Shown here: positions 47,193 through 56,023 of the stretch, piece by piece
How positions within the stretch are numbered: position 1 is the first letter of the stretch
Layout: every line of letters starts with the position of its first letter
Assembly (NCBI RefSeq): GCF_031538885.1
Contig: NZ_JAVKLW010000053.1
Location: 25,158 to 89,157 of the forward strand
Length of the DNA stretch: 64,000 nt
DNA from: Limnohabitans sp.
GTDB lineage: Bacteria > Pseudomonadota > Gammaproteobacteria > Burkholderiales > Burkholderiaceae_C
Reading direction: 5' to 3'
The notes under the pieces: generated by a model
Seen by the model: the letters and a program-made list of their open reading frames with translations, nothing else
Database searches by the model: none
What the model was told of the DNA's origin: nothing
Program-made: the position numbers and the translations under genes

Positions 47193-47269
47193 GGAGTGGT
47201 AGTTCAGTTGGTTAGAATACCGGCCTGTCACGCCGGGGGTCGCGGGTTCGAGTCCCGTCCACTCCGCCA
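47193..47269 (+). tRNA. tRNA-Asp(GTC), probable prophage attachment site
   Basis: GGAGTGG/CCACTCC acceptor stem, CCGGC-CTGTCAC-GCCGG, GGTTCGAGTC, CCA; integrase ends 70 nt downstream. Confidence 0.98.
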
Positions 47270-47277
47270 GTAAAATC

Positions 47278-47313
47278 AACGGGTTAGCTGTAAAAGGCTA
47301 ACCCGTTTTTCTT
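47278..47313 (+). terminator. Terminator after tRNA-Asp
   Basis: AACGGGTTAGC-TGTAAAAG-GCTAACCCGTT followed by Ts. Confidence 0.8.
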
Positions 47314-47339: not shown

Positions 47340-48437
47340 TCACTGCACGGGTTTGGCTTTTTTGACTGCGTGACGGTCATAAACTTGGCGAATCATGCGC
47401 TCACTTGAGTGCCCTGTCGCGTCTTGGGTGTCGGTCTGACCGCTCGCCAATTTGTCGCTCACCCCCTTCGGGCGGCAGTCTTGCAAGCTAAATGGCTTGA
47501 ACTCAATTTTTCGCTTTTCTGCTTCGCTCACGCACACCGTCATCAAGTCGCTCAACATGGCTTTCCAGCCGCCCTTGGTGTAGCGTTGCCCGCGCATATT
47601 GTCGAACACGTACATCGAACCCGCAACGTGGTTGCGCTTTAGTGCCAAGGCTTCATTCATGGTGGCGCGAAGCTCGTCCGTCCACTCAATCAGCACGGCG
47701 GGCTTGGTCTTGCTCTTGCCGTCCTGCCACAAAATGCCGTCGTCGCGGATTGCATCCCGCGTAATACCGCGCACCTCGACCGAGCGGCGAACACACAGCC
47801 ATGCGGTTTTGAGTGCAAGCGCGACAATGAGCCGCGCACCGCCCTTGCTTCGCCCAACTTCCAGCGCCAGCGACATTTCCACGTCGTTCACATGGCGGCT
47901 TGTTTTTACGGTTTTGTTCTTACGAATTCTGGTCAGTGGGTTGGTGCTGATGCGCCCAATACGCACACCATATTCGAGGATGACTTGCAACAACGCAATT
48001 TCTTTGTTGCCTTTTTCTGGCCGCCCAGCCTGCACACACGCATCAAGGTAGGTATAGCCGTCGGTTTTTGTGATTGCCGCAGGGTCAATATGGCCGAACG
48101 CCAGTTTGAGGTTTTTGGACTCGCGCTTGTTTTCGCGCAGCGTGGAATCGGCGCGGCGGTTTAGGTCGCTTGGAGGCAGTGATTCTTGCCAAGTGAACCA
48201 TGCGTCTATCAGTTCCTCGGTTTGCCCTGACGAGCGCACCCCATGATTGAGCAAAGCCGATTCAGTGATGGCTTTACGGCGCAGCTCGCTCACCTGATTT
48301 TTGTCAGCTATGGGGCATGAATACCGAAACGCCCACTGTCCATTCGACTGTTTGTAGCCGATGCTGTAGGTGCGCGCCCCACGGCGCTCATAGACGCGGT
48401 ATGGCAAGCCATCAGGGGTATCACGAGGACGGTTCAT
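47340..48437 (-). CDS. int: Tyrosine integrase
   Basis: LCVRRSVEV (R), LQDCRPKG (HxxR variant), TGHSS, VYDR. Confidence 0.9.
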   Translation of the reverse strand: MNRPRDTPDGLPYRVYERRGARTYSIGYKQSNGQWAFRYSCPIADKNQVSELRRKAITESALLNHGVRSSGQTEELIDAWFTWQESLPPSDLNRRADSTLRENKRESKNLKLAFGHIDPAAITKTDGYTYLDACVQAGRPEKGNKEIALLQVILEYGVRIGRISTNPLTRIRKNKTVKTSRHVNDVEMSLALEVGRSKGGARLIVALALKTAWLCVRRSVEVRGITRDAIRDDGILWQDGKSKTKPAVLIEWTDELRATMNEALALKRNHVAGSMYVFDNMRGQRYTKGGWKAMLSDLMTVCVSEAEKRKIEFKPFSLQDCRPKGVSDKLASGQTDTQDATGHSSERMIRQVYDRHAVKKAKPVQ

Positions 48438-48688
48438 GCTCTTTTAAGGAATGCGATATTTACAGATGGCTGGGGCTGGCCTCTATCGTTTGAAAACTCC
48501 CCGCGACACACGGCGAGATAGTGCGGGCGCTCTAAAATCACGCGCCCGTCACGCGCTCGGTATGCCCGAACAAACCCGCGCATGTGCAGCACGTTAAGCT
48601 GGCGCAACGGTGCGCTGTAGCCAGTAATTTGTTGTAGTTCTTCTTCGCTCAATCTGGCGCTGTCGATTGTCGCTTCGTTGGTGTTCAT
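48434..48688 (-). CDS. Excisionase-like DUF4224 protein
   Basis: LSEEELQQITGY...Q...L...G; ATGA overlap with int. Confidence 0.75.
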   Translation of the reverse strand: MNTNEATIDSARLSEEELQQITGYSAPLRQLNVLHMRGFVRAYRARDGRVILERPHYLAVCRGEFSNDRGQPQPSVNIAFLKRA

Positions 48689-48996
48689 GTCCCACCTCCA
48701 TATCTAAATTCAATTCGTGTGACTAGGCTATCTGGCGTACAGCCCCGATGCGTCGCGCAAAACATCGCCACGAACTCTTCGGGCGACATTTCGGGGAAGC
48801 CCTCACGTCGGCATTCCTCGCGCCCGTACTCTGGCTCGTCGGTCATGCGCCGCAGTGGTTCGCACCGCGTCGAAACCGTGACGACGGCATCACCAAGGCG
48901 CTCAATCTTTTCCCCAGGGCGAAGCCCCATGCACTTGGCCACCGGCTGGAATGCCTCGCCCACTTTGAGATGCAGCCTCCCCGCCCAAGCCGTCAT
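48685..48996 (-). pseudogene. ASCH-like phage protein, probably N-terminally damaged
   Basis: LHLKVG..QPV.KCMGLRPGEKI, EPLRRM, ECRREGFP.M.PEEFVAMFC; ILSGGK upstream in frame has no start codon. Confidence 0.5.
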
Positions 48997-49699
48997 CGTC
49001 GTTGTGTGCTTGCCACCACTCAGTATTGTTTTCCTCTTGCCATGCTTTCCAGCCCTTGACCCACTCGATGCAAAGAGCGCCAGCCATGATTGGGCAATCG
49101 CTTTGCGGCTTGCCTTCTTGCGCGGCCAGTTGTCCGTCGCCGTAGGCTTCGTCTAACTCGCTTTGAAGGTGCTGGTGTGGAATGGCCTTGACCTCGGCAT
49201 CAACCACTTCACCCGCGCCACTTGCGCCGTCCATGCCTTTGCCGTCGCCGTTCGGGTCGTACTCATGCCCCAAGTCCATAGCGCGTTGGTCTGATTCGCC
49301 CTTGATTTCATCCATGCCGCCCGTGTGCTGGGCAGGGTTGGCAACGACAACCAGCACGGCTTTACCGCTGGCTTCGTAGAGTTCATGCAGATTGGGGGCG
49401 GAGCTACCGAATTTCACAACAGCTTTCACGCCGTCCTTGATTGTGATTTGGTCGAGGTCGCCCGCAACCACAGTGCGGCCTTCGCTGGCTACGAGGTGAA
49501 CCGCCATGCGGACATTGGTTTCTACGCGATTGCGAAGGCGGTCAATCACGTCGTCTTGCTTTGCCTTGGGCAGTTTCACCCACAGGTCGGGCAGCAGCTT
49601 GATTTCCTGGACAAGGGTTTGCAGGATGTCGCGCCCCACGGTGTCCGAAGTCATGGACAGGAGGGTTTTTACGTCGTCGGCTTGGTTATCGGTTGCCAT
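48902..49699 (-). CDS. Phage protein with C-terminal RMF-like domain
   Basis: Conserved-looking N-terminal domain; residues 184-222 match the RMF pattern A-x3-G-x2-A-x3-G-x5-CP-x9-W-x2-GW. Confidence 0.7.
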   Translation of the reverse strand: MATDNQADDVKTLLSMTSDTVGRDILQTLVQEIKLLPDLWVKLPKAKQDDVIDRLRNRVETNVRMAVHLVASEGRTVVAGDLDQITIKDGVKAVVKFGSSAPNLHELYEASGKAVLVVVANPAQHTGGMDEIKGESDQRAMDLGHEYDPNGDGKGMDGASGAGEVVDAEVKAIPHQHLQSELDEAYGDGQLAAQEGKPQSDCPIMAGALCIEWVKGWKAWQEENNTEWWQAHNDDDGLGGEAASQSGRGIPAGGQVHGASPWGKD

Positions 49700-49731: not shown

Positions 49732-50760
49732 TTATTCCATGCCGCCAGTCGTGGCGCGTTCACGGCGGGCGCGGGGTTGCTGGGCGGGCTGTTGTCCGTT
49801 TGCCTCGGCAAGTTCACGGGCTTGGATGTCTGCCAGTTCTTCGGCGGTTGGCTCCCACGGTGCGCCCGCGTCGGCTGCTGGTGCGGTGTTGGTGGCCGCT
49901 GGTGCTGCGCCTTTAATCTCGCCCGTTTCCTGATTGACGGTTTCAGCGCGAGCGGCAGGTGCGGCGGCAGGTTGCTCGGTTTGCACAACTTCGGCGGGGC
50001 GCATTTCACGGGGTGCATTACGTAGCGTTTCCGTGGTGACGCTTGCCACCGTGCCGTCTGGGTTCATGTCGATGATGTCGTGGGCTTCTTCCACGGTCTG
50101 CAAACCCATCAGCAATTCAGGTGCGTACAGCTTGCCGAAGAAGCTGGCTGTGCGGTAGCGCAGCATGACTTCTGGCATGGTTTGCCACTTGCTGCCGTTC
50201 TTTCCGTACCAGCCCTCTTTGACAGCCATTTCAAGAGACACCTTGGGGCTGTCAATGCGCGTGCCTGTTTCTTTCTCGACCGCCCACGCGATGCACTCAA
50301 GGTTTTGCACGGTGGCTTTCATTTTTTTATTCACGCGCTGGCGGTCAACCCACTCAGTGACGGTGTATTCAACTTCTTTGCTGCCCAAGTCTTTGAGGTC
50401 AAAGCGCAGCGGCGAGAAGCGTCCGCATCCGTTGATGGCGGCAATAATCCACTGGCTTGACCAGCTTGGGCGACCTTCCACGATGTAGAGGTTTTGACAA
50501 ATCATTAATGGGTCAGCGCCCATGCGCTGCGCCATGTTTAGTGCGACAACGCAGTTTGAAAGTGCGTTTGGGTTATCGCCTTTTTTCTCGTCCCACTTGC
50601 GGTAGGCCGCGGGTACAAGCGTGGAGTTTGACAACAGGTTTGCCGCACGCTGCATCAATTCAAAACCCGCTGAATTGAAGAACCCAAGCGTTGCGTTGGC
50701 TTGAGGTGCTGGGGTTTGTGGGCGTAAATTTGCCAGTGTTTTTTGAGTAACTTCAGACAT
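49732..50760 (-). CDS. RecT-like single-strand annealing protein
   Basis: STLVP..Y, NC.VALNMA.RMGADP, GRPSW, KWQTMPEVMLRYR, APELLMG; RBS AGGAG before ATG 50760. Confidence 0.75.
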   Translation of the reverse strand: MSEVTQKTLANLRPQTPAPQANATLGFFNSAGFELMQRAANLLSNSTLVPAAYRKWDEKKGDNPNALSNCVVALNMAQRMGADPLMICQNLYIVEGRPSWSSQWIIAAINGCGRFSPLRFDLKDLGSKEVEYTVTEWVDRQRVNKKMKATVQNLECIAWAVEKETGTRIDSPKVSLEMAVKEGWYGKNGSKWQTMPEVMLRYRTASFFGKLYAPELLMGLQTVEEAHDIIDMNPDGTVASVTTETLRNAPREMRPAEVVQTEQPAAAPAARAETVNQETGEIKGAAPAATNTAPAADAGAPWEPTAEELADIQARELAEANGQQPAQQPRARRERATTGGME

Positions 50761-51250
50761 TTGATTTCTCCTTGGTTGATGAACGTTTGTTTCGGTTTTG
50801 CTCGGTACGGGTAGCCCATCGGCAGTTGCTTGGTTCGTAGTTGCCGTTGGTGTTGATGCGGTCAATGCTGGTGTCTGGTGGTCGCTCGCCCATGTCGGCA
50901 AGGAAACTCTCGAAGGACTCGCGCCACTGTTTGCATACCGTAATGCCGCGCCCGCCGTAGTCTTTGAAGTTGCGGTGGGTGCTGTCGCTGCACCGCGCCA
51001 ACATCGAACGCCATGAGTTGTAGGTCGGCGATTTGTAGAAACCGTGGGTAGTCTTCTTTTCTCGCATAGCATCGGCGCGGGCACAACCGCACGAGGTGGT
51101 TTCGCCTTTGCGCAGAGATTGAGAACGCACGGTGACTTGCTTGCCGCAGTCGCACCGACAGACAAAGGCGGCAACGATGCCGATGCGCGTTTTCTTGGTG
51201 GCGACAAGCCGCCCGAAGCGTTGACCGATGAGGTTGATGAGGGCGCTCAT
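50753..51250 (-). CDS. HNH homing endonuclease-like protein
   Basis: GQRFGRL, CRCDCG, TTSCGC, YGGRGITVC, SIDRINTNGNYEPSNCRWAT. Confidence 0.88.
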   Translation of the reverse strand: MSALINLIGQRFGRLVATKKTRIGIVAAFVCRCDCGKQVTVRSQSLRKGETTSCGCARADAMREKKTTHGFYKSPTYNSWRSMLARCSDSTHRNFKDYGGRGITVCKQWRESFESFLADMGERPPDTSIDRINTNGNYEPSNCRWATRTEQNRNKRSSTKEKSNV

Positions 51251-51363
51251 ACCGTCACCGCCTTGCTGAACGTGGGCTTCATGCCTGCACGTTTGGCAGG
51301 CTCTGCGCTTGGTGTTCCTGCTTGGTACTCGGCAAGGTATTGGCTGTAGTCGTGCTTAGGCAT
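51247..51363 (-). CDS. 38-aa phage ORF (MPKHDYSQYLAEY...)
   Basis: Start overlaps the exonuclease stop and stop overlaps the HNH start (ATGA); below the ORF-track cutoff. Confidence 0.55.
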   Translation of the reverse strand: MPKHDYSQYLAEYQAGTPSAEPAKRAGMKPTFSKAVTV

Positions 51364-52150
51364 GAGCTTTGCACTCCTTAAAAATTGGGCAGTACCGCTC
51401 ATGACAAAGCATTGACTTTGGATTCGGATAAAACGATCCTGAATGAATTAACCTTGATGCGTGTTCCAAGATGCCAGGCGACTCGCCGTCGCCCAGGAGC
51501 ACAGAACGAGCGTCCGAGATTTCGCCAGTGCCCACGCGCTGCGACGCTGGTGTTTTGGCGGTATTCATGCCGATGATTTGCGCCGCGCCCGTGATTGGCA
51601 CGCCGCTGGCTTGTTCGGCGAGCAGCTCGTACACTCCCATTTGGTAGGCGTGGCCTGCGGTTTTGACGTTGCCGTCTGACCCAACGGCGGCTTTGCCCGT
51701 CTTGAGGTCACAGATAGCCAAGCCGTCGGCGGTTTCACGCACGCGGTCTGTTGTGCCCGTGAGCGCAATGCCGAGGTCGGTGATTTCCAAGCGCTCGCAC
51801 TTGATTTCAACGCCGCGATAGGTTTGCTTCGGGGCGATGATTTGGCAGTACTTGACGTGCAAGGAAAGGGCAATCTTCTCGGCATCCTGCGGCGTGTCGT
51901 CTTCCCAAACCACGTCCTCGTCGGGGCGGTGGATGGTGTCAACGGCTGCGGCTGCGGCCTCGTCGATTGAAATGCCTGTGCCGTCAATGCCCGACTGGTC
52001 GAACACAGCGGTGCTGGCGTGTACGGCTTTGCCAAGCATGGCTTTACCGTTTGACGGAGTGCGTTTCCCGTCTATGTGGGTGGCTGCCCATGCCGCAGGG
52101 CAGTCAAAGAGCCTGCCGAGGCTTGAGGCGCGAATGGTGACAATGTTCAC
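51356..52150 (-). CDS. PD-(D/E)XK exonuclease (RecB/Cas4-like)
   Basis: SSL..LFDCP, GKAVH, GTTDRV, DLKTG, QMGVY, C-terminal CHERYCPIFKEC. Confidence 0.85.
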   Translation of the reverse strand: MNIVTIRASSLGRLFDCPAAWAATHIDGKRTPSNGKAMLGKAVHASTAVFDQSGIDGTGISIDEAAAAAVDTIHRPDEDVVWEDDTPQDAEKIALSLHVKYCQIIAPKQTYRGVEIKCERLEITDLGIALTGTTDRVRETADGLAICDLKTGKAAVGSDGNVKTAGHAYQMGVYELLAEQASGVPITGAAQIIGMNTAKTPASQRVGTGEISDARSVLLGDGESPGILEHASRLIHSGSFYPNPKSMLCHERYCPIFKECKAHA

Positions 52151-54420: not shown

Positions 54421-54876
54421 TTAAAAAGTGGGGGTGGATTGATCGACTTTGCCAGTCGGCGGCTTGCCCGCGAAGGCTGCTGTCTCGGTGGCTGGGTGGG
54501 CGGGCGTGTTTCCAGCGCTGCCTAGCACCTCTAGGATGTCTTGTTTGGTGGTTTGGCGCAGCCCCACGACGAAGATGGATAGTAGGCTTGCAGCTTCTTT
54601 GCGCTGCTCATGGCCCAGCTTCTCGCAGGCAGTCTCGATCACGTCTAGCGCCCCGGACACCGTAGGTGCAGCCCCCGCACTGCTGACGTTGCCAGATTCG
54701 GGGCGCATGGGGCCAAACCTTATCGCAATGTCTCGTTCAATCTTTGCCCCTATTGGTCTTTTTGCAGCGAGCCACTGATTGACCTGTGATGGAGACTTTC
54801 CAAGCATGAGCGCAAAGCGGGCTTGGCTGCCCTCTGCGTGCTTGTCTATCAGTTTTTTGAGCTGCTCAATTTTCAT
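54421..54876 (-). CDS. CI-like prophage repressor (HTH, no S24 peptidase domain)
   Basis: GSQARFALMLGKSPSQVNQWL HTH; divergent from cro. Confidence 0.85.
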   Translation of the reverse strand: MKIEQLKKLIDKHAEGSQARFALMLGKSPSQVNQWLAAKRPIGAKIERDIAIRFGPMRPESGNVSSAGAAPTVSGALDVIETACEKLGHEQRKEAASLLSIFVVGLRQTTKQDILEVLGSAGNTPAHPATETAAFAGKPPTGKVDQSTPTF

Positions 54877-54883
54877 GATCTTC

Positions 54884-54942
54884 ACTTTAGCAAAAGTTTA
54901 TTTATCTTTGATATTGACTTTTATGTTTACTAATGCTACATT
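54884..54942. promoter_or_regulatory. pR/pRM divergent promoter-operator region
   Basis: pR TTGACT(54914-54919)-17-TACATT(54937-54942); pRM extended -10 TG-C-TAAAGT on the minus strand; operator repeats shared with pL. Confidence 0.8.
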
Positions 54943-54948
54943 CTTGGC

Positions 54949-55200
54949 ATGGAAATTAAAGACTACCTTGATAAGACATCAACTGCGGGACACCAACTAG
55001 CCGCGCTTATTGGGATTGCCCCTTCATACCTCAGCCAGATGATCGCTGGTCACAGGCCGTGGAAGCCTGCGCACTGCACCGCCATCGAACGCATCACTGG
55101 CGGCAAGGTGACCCGCCAAGGCCTCCGCCCCAACGATTACTGGCTGATCTGGCCAGACCTCCAACAACCCGCCGAGGCGAAGGATGTGGCGAATGCTTAG
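54949..55200 (+). CDS. Cro/YdaS-like repressor
   Basis: LAALIGIAPSYLSQM, AIERITGGKVTRQGLRPND..LIWPDL. Confidence 0.88.
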   Translation: MEIKDYLDKTSTAGHQLAALIGIAPSYLSQMIAGHRPWKPAHCTAIERITGGKVTRQGLRPNDYWLIWPDLQQPAEAKDVANA

Positions 55201-55687
55201 ACCATTGATTCCCCTTGAAAAAGAGCTTGCGCGCTGTTTGGTTTTGACTGAATCGAAGACGACTTTAGAGCTGGCGACGCGCATCGCCCATGAGTTACCA
55301 ACTGGTGCAGATGCAGCTATGGGGGCGCAGTCCGCGCTGAAGTTGGTGTACGGACTTTTAAGAGCGTTGCAAGTCACCCCCGAATGTGAAGGGTTCTGTG
55401 ATCGATGTTTTCCGGGATGTCCCCAAGGATCACCGTCACATGCCACGCCAAAAGCTCCTGATGGTTGTCTGGGTTGCGTCGGATTGTGTAGTGAACCGAT
55501 AACACTAAAAAATCCCGAACCTCTCCCCCTAAATGCTCCACCAGTTGATGCCGAACGACTTCGCCAACTCTTGGTATTGGCATTCCTTCCTGAATTGCTA
55601 GGGGAACGTCCGTCAATTTGTACCCAGCGGGTACGGATGCATACGTGTTTTTCGAGCGTGAGTTTTTGCGCTTGCAAAACGAAATGA
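55193..55687 (+). CDS. Hypothetical ORF between cro and cII (may be partly spurious)
   Basis: ATG overlaps the cro stop; 3' half overlaps a more protein-like minus-strand ORF. Confidence 0.3.
   Translation: MLRPLIPLEKELARCLVLTESKTTLELATRIAHELPTGADAAMGAQSALKLVYGLLRALQVTPECEGFCDRCFPGCPQGSPSHATPKAPDGCLGCVGLCSEPITLKNPEPLPLNAPPVDAERLRQLLVLAFLPELLGERPSICTQRVRMHTCFSSVSFCACKTK
55374..55616 (-). CDS. Hypothetical reverse-oriented protein, possibly frameshifted at its 5' end
   Basis: PIPRVGEVV..DFLVLSVHYTI beta-rich pattern. Confidence 0.4.
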   Translation of the reverse strand: MTDVPLAIQEGMPIPRVGEVVRHQLVEHLGGEVRDFLVLSVHYTIRRNPDNHQELLAWHVTVILGDIPENIDHRTLHIRG

Positions 55688-55714
55688 TGGCTGAAGAAGC
55701 TGTGGAGTGAAGTC

Positions 55715-56023
55715 ATGACTGAATCTTCTCACTCAATATCTGAGAGGTCACGCAAGAACGAACGCGCGGTCTTGCATGCGCTTGCAGAGGCTGGCCAATC
55801 TGAAATCGCAAAGCGAATGGATGTGAGCGAATCCACAGTTAGCCGCATGAAGGATGGGCAAATTGCCGCTGTGTCTTCGCTTCTCGCCGCATGCGGCCTG
55901 AAGGTTGTACCAGAGCAATTTAAGTGCATTGACCCAGCAAAGGCGCAGGCAATGGTCACGCTATACGAAGCGGCCATGGCACGTATTGAAAACCCTGTTT
56001 CCTTACTTTGGGGGGATGAATGA
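55715..56023 (+). CDS. CII-like transcriptional activator
   Basis: GQSEIAKRMDVSESTVSRMK, LLAACGLKVVP; position after cro. Confidence 0.85.
   Translation: MTESSHSISERSRKNERAVLHALAEAGQSEIAKRMDVSESTVSRMKDGQIAAVSSLLAACGLKVVPEQFKCIDPAKAQAMVTLYEAAMARIENPVSLLWGDE

Follow-up and report, generated by a model that had tools for sequence, protein, structure and literature searches.

The minus-strand gene at positions 48902-49699 of the 64,000-nucleotide stretch of Limnohabitans sp. DNA analyzed here (the window) encodes a protein that we consider, with a probability of about 0.5, to be a modular accessory of a prophage Exo/RecT recombination or DNA-end module, and not a ribosome hibernation factor. According to this reading, an N-terminal domain of ~145 aa (N-domain), with a fold that has no match among solved structures, would be the conserved working part; in most relatives its coding sequence immediately precedes that of an SbcC/Rad50-like ATPase, with which the domain probably acts. 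A flexible acidic linker would carry a variable C-terminal module for targeting or binding, which may be an FtsK-gamma winged helix, the C-terminal domain of H-NS, another winged helix or, as in the present protein, an RMF/CrpP fold. This last module appears to have kept the RMF core (G..A..G, the CP turn and W..GW) and lost the basic surface of RMF, and its acidic form would most likely bind not 16S rRNA but a protein or some other basic partner.

The ORF list gives the gene 265 codons plus a stop codon. Its ATG lies 32 nt past the stop of the RecT-like gene and has a ribosome-binding site of its own (AAAGGAA, a good match) 8 nt upstream, so that the two genes are tightly packed. The peptide on which the original prediction was based corresponds to aa 184-217 of this ORF, and the interval 49034-49150 to aa 184-222. 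The ~140-aa N-terminal domain and the acidic linker that had been described from the sequence were both recovered: the N-domain (aa 1-145; 49265-49699, minus strand) matches the PHROG family phrog_6576, of unknown function, over aa 8-160 (E=1.1e-51, 177 bits), and is followed by a Gly/Asp-rich linker (aa 146-178; 49166-49264, minus strand) with a net charge of -5 that is predicted to be disordered (pLDDT <50). Next come the RMF/CrpP-fold domain (aa 179-225; 49025-49165, minus strand), which is acidic and consists of two helices according to profiles, AlphaFold2 and Foldseek, and an aligned C-terminus that is conserved in the family (aa 226-243, TEWWQAHNDDDGLGGEAA; 48971-49024, minus strand). 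The protein as a whole is strongly acidic, with a net charge of -20 and a pI of 4.66.

Its last 22 residues (aa 244-265, with a new stop; 48902-48970, minus strand) are not conserved. Comparison with the closest relative, from an Accumulibacter metagenome-assembled genome (84% identity), revealed an 82-nt deletion (relative, L005:6722-6804) with its junction at 48970-48978, between the imperfect 8-nt repeats GGCAGCAT and GGCTGCAT. In relatives the protein ends directly after the sequence LGGEAA; the TGA that follows shares bases with the start codon of the next gene (ATGA), and the cluster mates of the protein at 90% identity have 243 aa. The deletion removed this TGA and also 26 codons from the start of the downstream gene, and the protein therefore runs on for 22 residues in an alternative frame of that gene; both conserved domains are untouched. 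The downstream ORF (48685-48996, minus strand) is consequently 5'-truncated, with 103 aa as listed, and overlaps the gene by 95 nt. It matches no family, and an ASCH-like domain considered for it was rejected, as there was no Pfam match even when the N-terminus of the relative was supplied. A pseudogene or frameshift reading of the 95-nt overlap was also rejected, since the overlap is caused by the 82-nt deletion and concerns the extreme C-terminus only.

The RMF-like motif that had been noticed in the peptide is present, and the likeness exceeds chance by profile methods, though pairwise identity is low (9 of 34 positions in an ungapped comparison with the E. coli RMF stretch). The best HMM match overall was the NCBIfam model Rmf_CrpP_fam (NF041886; E=3.6e-6, 26.5 bits, cut-off 28). 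The Pfam RMF model PF04957 matched aa 180-219 with E=1.5e-4 and 22.2 bits, below its curated cut-off of 27.9, and the RMF equivalog NF011162 with E=7e-5 and 22.6 bits, below its cut-off of 40; weak matches were obtained with the specific CrpP (NF033696; E=0.02) and phage Rmf-like (NF041887; E=0.11) models. The search against RMF/CrpP profiles that had been proposed as a check thus yielded significant E-values but scores below the curated cut-offs, just under in the case of the best model. Many close homologs carry a precomputed PF04957 match. When a profile of 16 family sequences was compared with the PDB, the top three matches were RMF chains (2jrm, E=4e-4; 6h4n, E=8e-3; 4v8g, E=9e-3).

Structure prediction, the second check proposed, led to the same fold. 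AlphaFold2 modeled aa 179-230 with a pLDDT of 89-94 and with helices at 179-194 and 207-223. In a Foldseek search of the PDB, the best four matches were all RMF, with probabilities of 0.89-0.99, target TM scores of 0.63-0.78 and, for 2jrm, an rmsd of 2.0 A over 46 columns; the corresponding E-values were weak (0.4-1.0) because the domain is short. In the 83-sequence AlphaFold2 alignment, which is shallow (all sequences at least 59% identical; N-domain pLDDT about 50 there), G189, A193, P203, L209 and W213 are invariant, and A192, G196, C202, G216 and W217 are kept in at least 90% of the sequences. These conserved residues correspond to the structural core of RMF. Comparison with relatives gave dN/dS values of 0.06-0.22 for the domain, which is therefore maintained by selection. 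On the basis of profiles and models, the C-terminal domain is predicted to have the RMF/CrpP fold, and we count it as a probable divergent member of the Rmf/CrpP superfamily at the level of the fold.

RMF is a free basic protein of about 55 aa that binds the 30S subunit and drives 100S formation, and the rRNA region that it targets is universal. The original prediction transferred this function to the phage protein: its RMF-like domain would bind the host 30S subunit as RMF does, allowing the phage to silence, hibernate or redirect ribosomes early, in a host without an RMF of its own. We consider this very unlikely. The homology of the fold, with its conserved core motif, is real and the domain is under purifying selection, but its charge is reversed: the net charge is -5 (pI 4.25), compared with +4 (pI 10.3) for the matching stretch of E. 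coli RMF, and amounts to -3 when the same 34 residues are taken. Acidity is common to the family, with a mean net charge of -6 (range -10 to +1) among 144 homologs, and in the HMM alignment the Lys and Arg positions of RMF are mostly opposite Glu, Asp or neutral residues of the family consensus. The scores below the RMF cut-offs also speak against a ribosome function, as does the architecture: all 120 close homologs are fusions and none is a stand-alone protein of ~55 aa. Unlike free RMF, the domain is tethered to 180 N-terminal residues and, in relatives, also to a C-terminal domain that binds DNA. Finally, the gene is surrounded by DNA recombination genes, and both architecture and synteny point to DNA transactions.

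That the host group lacks a canonical rmf gene, as had been stated, was borne out, and this, together with the universal rRNA target region, also speaks for the ribosome reading. The host genome (2.28 Mb in 141 contigs, 96% complete), whose FtsH groups with sequences from Burkholderiaceae, contained no other RMF-like match over the cut-off, the one match on another contig being weak (E=0.15); the gene under study is thus the only RMF-like match in this genome that nears significance, and it is under the cut-off as well. Among 151 genomes of the host order, 8 had any RMF match and 3 had one over the cut-off, all of them inside ORFs of 102-343 aa. Ribosomal proteins could still give an acidic RMF fold access to the ribosome, which counts against the recombination-accessory reading. 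If the fold engaged the translation machinery in this manner, for example via basic ribosomal proteins in or around the RMF site, the family would couple phage recombination to ribosome control in bacteria without RMF; we regard this as highly improbable. The original prediction had also allowed for use of the fold on a different nucleic-acid target. A non-ribosomal target broadly fits the evidence, but given the acidic charge a nucleic acid is no likelier than a protein.

The N-domain is shared by a large family. There were 695 homologs of the protein at E<=1e-3 in a database clustered at 90% identity, and the N-domain family comprises at least 1336 clusters at 50% identity (E<=1e-3). An AlphaFold2 model based on a diverse alignment of 142 sequences (pLDDT 88, pTM 0.71) predicts a long helical hairpin (aa 4-72) together with short helices and a beta hairpin, and the domain contains a conserved GGMDxxxGExDQR segment. 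Its dN/dS values of 0.04-0.16 indicate purifying selection, so that both domains of the protein are under constraint. Searches for relatives of the N-domain gave no family in Pfam and NCBIfam even at E<=1, no matching PADLOC model and no match to PDB sequences; its model had no Foldseek match in the PDB at E<=1e-3, and the matches in BFVD were uncharacterized phage proteins only. The lack of a detectable relative of known function weakens the case for a recombination accessory. Full-text literature searches returned no paper on the family or on the fusion of the N-domain to an RMF-like domain, and no experimental study.

The C-termini of the family are variable. Among 150 representatives at 50% identity, 96 consist of the N-domain alone or with an unclassified extension, 30 carry FtsK-gamma only, 21 an RMF-like domain only, and 3 combine an RMF-like domain with FtsK-gamma. 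FtsK-gamma is the commonest C-terminal module (31-33 of ~150 relatives). In addition, Pfam searches with the 141 representatives of at least 135 aa identified the H-NS C-terminal domain in three and winged helices of the MarR, TrmB and S25 types in one each. The RMF-like module alternates or combines with these DNA-binding C-termini and therefore fills a slot that is held elsewhere by dsDNA-binding domains, sometimes preceding one. Such domains in the family favor a DNA-related role, and the conserved acidity of the RMF-like module agrees with its use as something other than an rRNA binder.

Many homologs are automatically annotated as "cell division protein FtsK", "DNA translocase FtsK" or "ribosome modulation factor". 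Labels that contain FtsK mislead, because no homolog has the FtsK motor domain: in Pfam searches, an FtsK/SpoIIIE motor domain was absent from the protein and from the 141 representatives. For the protein itself an FtsK identity was rejected, as Pfam finds neither the motor nor the gamma domain in it.

The gene belongs to a lambdoid-type prophage located beside a tRNA-Ala/Glu/Asp cluster, the tRNA-Asp gene (47193-47269) marking the prophage end. A perfect hairpin with a 12-bp stem (47278-47307) directly follows tRNA-Asp, at the prophage/host junction and before the integrase gene; it could be the terminator of the tRNA operon or part of the attachment site. The leftward arm, all on the minus strand, contains the genes for the integrase (47340-48437) and an excisionase-like DUF4224 protein (48434-48688), both assigned by Pfam/PHROG matches, followed by the truncated ORF and the gene under study. 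Directly upstream of the latter is the gene for a RecT-like single-strand annealing protein (49732-50757; phrog_561, E=3e-79, and tblastn against phage RecT), and the first gene of the recombination module encodes a PD-(D/E)XK exonuclease (51356-52150; PF12705, E=2.5e-18, and phrog_69). Between the two lies a gene for an HNH endonuclease (50753-51250, minus strand; phrog_374, E=4e-63). In the relatives examined, the exonuclease gene directly adjoins that for RecT, with no HNH gene at this place, so that the gene looks like the insertion of a homing endonuclease. This insertion also appears to be the reason for the excessive length of the listed RecT ORF (491 aa), as similarity to relatives starts near 50757.

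Genes for CII-like, DUF1376 and DnaC/IstB-like replication proteins, terminase and portal follow on the plus strand from ~55.7 kb. A 230-aa ORF without a Pfam match (55024-55716, minus strand) is located at the divergence point of the prophage arms, where a CI-type repressor is expected, and a YdaS-like HTH protein is encoded next to it (54421-54885, minus strand). Gene content and order, from the integrase at tRNA-Asp and the excisionase-like gene through the RecT-like, exonuclease, CII-like and replication genes to terminase and portal, confirm the phage context that had been assumed, and it is therefore fair to call the product a protein of the phage early left operon. Expression from pL, as originally predicted, holds in so far as the gene is part of a leftward operon that includes int, xis, RecT and exo; the pL promoter itself is deduced from orientation and spacing only. 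Scans for promoter and terminator consensus sequences returned sites that were no commoner than in shuffled sequence. No RNA runs containing the stretch were found, the only data sets that did so being freshwater and fish-gut DNA metagenomes, at a low share.

An argument for a role in recombination comes from the gene order in relatives. In Burkholderia phage vB_E192a and the Pseudomonas phages PP9W and phi297, the genes for a PD-(D/E)XK nuclease, RecT, in some cases a small ORF, the homolog and an ATPase of ~585 aa succeed each other. This ATPase (for example L003:6870-8636, L004:6751-8496 and L074:5416-7161) matches AAA_23/SMC_N and the PHROG "SbcC-like subunit" phrog_77, and the annotators of phi297 noted ABC_Rad50 for it. 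We surveyed the neighborhoods of homologs at 69 genome loci, mostly from Burkholderiales, Nitrosomonadales, Rhodocyclales and Neisseriales, with few Xanthomonadales. An RMF-like domain was encoded at 60 of them. The ATPase gene started on the same strand and no more than 1.6 kb downstream at 38 of the 58 loci that could be scored, whereas a RecT-like gene was located upstream at 30 and an exonuclease gene at 33 of 61 loci. This synteny, the tight packing of the gene after RecT and the constraint on both domains lead us to infer a role in DNA transactions and, where the ATPase is encoded, a partnership with it.

The pattern has exceptions, which count against a recombination accessory. No SbcC-like ATPase gene is present in the window, and the prophage analyzed here shares this feature with its closest relative from Accumulibacter: in both, the next gene is the small ORF, followed by xis and int, which means that the ATPase is not an obligatory partner. 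The RecT/exonuclease synteny is limited to about half of the loci. Moreover, distant homologs of the N-domain that carry FtsK-gamma are encoded just upstream of the terminase genes in Mor-encoding phages, in Stenotrophomonas phage vB_SmaS_QH16 (L075:4198-4956) and, at the genome starts, in phages Suso and HXX_Dennis. As these homologs adjoin terminase genes, the recombination-module context is not universal, and the family may act in more than one process involving DNA. The SbcC/Rad50-like ATPase gene that follows homologs has no adjacent gene for an Mre11/SbcD-type nuclease, and the two genes may form an uncharacterized two-gene unit. A narrower reading, which we put forward tentatively and consider somewhat unlikely, is that the N-domain family is an unrecognized non-nuclease partner of phage SbcC/Rad50-like ATPases, with the RMF fold as a targeting module interchangeable with FtsK-gamma.

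The position of the gene also admits other functions. The gene order of lambda Red is gam-bet-exo, to which the place of the present gene as the third after exo and RecT is parallel, and the protein could accordingly be an analogue of lambda Gam, i.e., an inhibitor of host nucleases or an anti-defense protein that shields linear phage DNA or recombination intermediates by blocking host nucleases such as RecBCD, SbcCD or restriction enzymes or by mimicking their substrate. The pronounced acidity of the whole protein and the long helical hairpin predicted for the N-domain would suit such a function, but no similarity in sequence or fold to Gam, Abc2, Ocr or ArdA was detected, and the frequent fusion of the N-domain to true dsDNA-binding domains (FtsK-gamma, H-NS) is more in keeping with DNA binding than with DNA mimicry. 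The search of PADLOC, whose models represent defense and not anti-defense systems, yielded no match either. Taken together, these data make a Gam-like function unlikely.

The stretch between the recombination genes and int is, furthermore, a common site of host-takeover and defense cargo, and the gene is situated near the int end, at which accessory cargo builds up. The protein might therefore be directed at the nucleoid or chromosome for takeover or exclusion, with the SbcC-like ATPase where it is present, and be unrelated to recombination; its C-terminal module would select the target, for example segregation, Xer/dif or a competing element. The FtsK-gamma domain binds KOPS DNA and XerD, so its rank as the commonest C-terminal module fits this idea, and the N-terminus of the ATPase is weakly similar to the defense ATPases LmuB, PtuA and GajA in PADLOC. 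This similarity is, however, limited to a generic P-loop/coiled-coil region (E about 1e-9), Burkholderia, Pseudomonas and many betaproteobacterial prophages share the arrangement with exo and RecT, and the copy in the window has neither an FtsK-gamma domain nor an ATPase. We thus judge cargo of this type to be distinctly unlikely and retain a recombination accessory as the preferred reading.

The bare observation of an RMF domain is not new, because public annotation already shows the domain match. The novel points are that the reversal of its charge is conserved, that it is interchangeable with FtsK-gamma and H-NS modules, and that the Exo-RecT-X-SbcC-like gene order is conserved as well. An RMF/CrpP fold with reversed charge is thus maintained by purifying selection inside a large uncharacterized phage family, and the module to which it belongs spans prophages of Burkholderiales, Nitrosomonadales, Rhodocyclales, Neisseriales and Xanthomonadales as well as Pseudomonas phages. 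Should its role as a recombination accessory be borne out, the protein might be relevant to recombineering in these bacteria, and a gene that is widely mislabeled as "FtsK" or "ribosome modulation factor" would be explained. The case also cautions that an RMF match in Pfam alone does not imply a ribosome function.

Among known proteins, those of vB_E192a (XRX03570.1), phi297 (gp12, AEX55814.1) and PP9W (UAW06798.1) share the N-domain (phrog_6576, E=1e-51 to 1e-122) and the position after exo and RecT, and XRX03570.1 also has the RMF-like domain. They are annotated as "DNA translocase FtsK" or "cell division protein", and have FtsK-gamma or other C-termini followed by the SbcC/Rad50-like ATPase gene, whereas the present protein ends past its RMF-like domain and is encoded without the ATPase. 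Lambda Gam, the third component of the Red system and, like the present protein, small, acidic and largely helical, occupies a comparable place in an operon with an exonuclease and an annealase; as there is no detectable similarity in sequence or structure, the analogy is one of position only. Known carriers of the RMF/CrpP fold are a ribosome hibernation factor and small proteins of mobile elements whose function is disputed. With RMF (PF04957; NF011162; 2jrm, 4v8g, 6h4n) the domain has in common the two-helix fold and the core spacing G-Y-x-A-x-x-G ... C-P ... W-x-x-G-W, but RMF is basic, free and ~55 aa long, and is the product of a stationary-phase gene of gammaproteobacteria, whereas the domain studied here is acidic and part of a phage protein of 243-265 aa encoded in the prophage recombination module of a betaproteobacterium. 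The Rmf/CrpP proteins of mobile elements (NF041886), including the ICE-associated CrpP (NF033696) and the phage Rmf-like proteins (NF041887), resemble it in being carried by mobile elements; they are small and stand alone, whereas in the present family the fold is the C-terminal or middle module of a larger protein.
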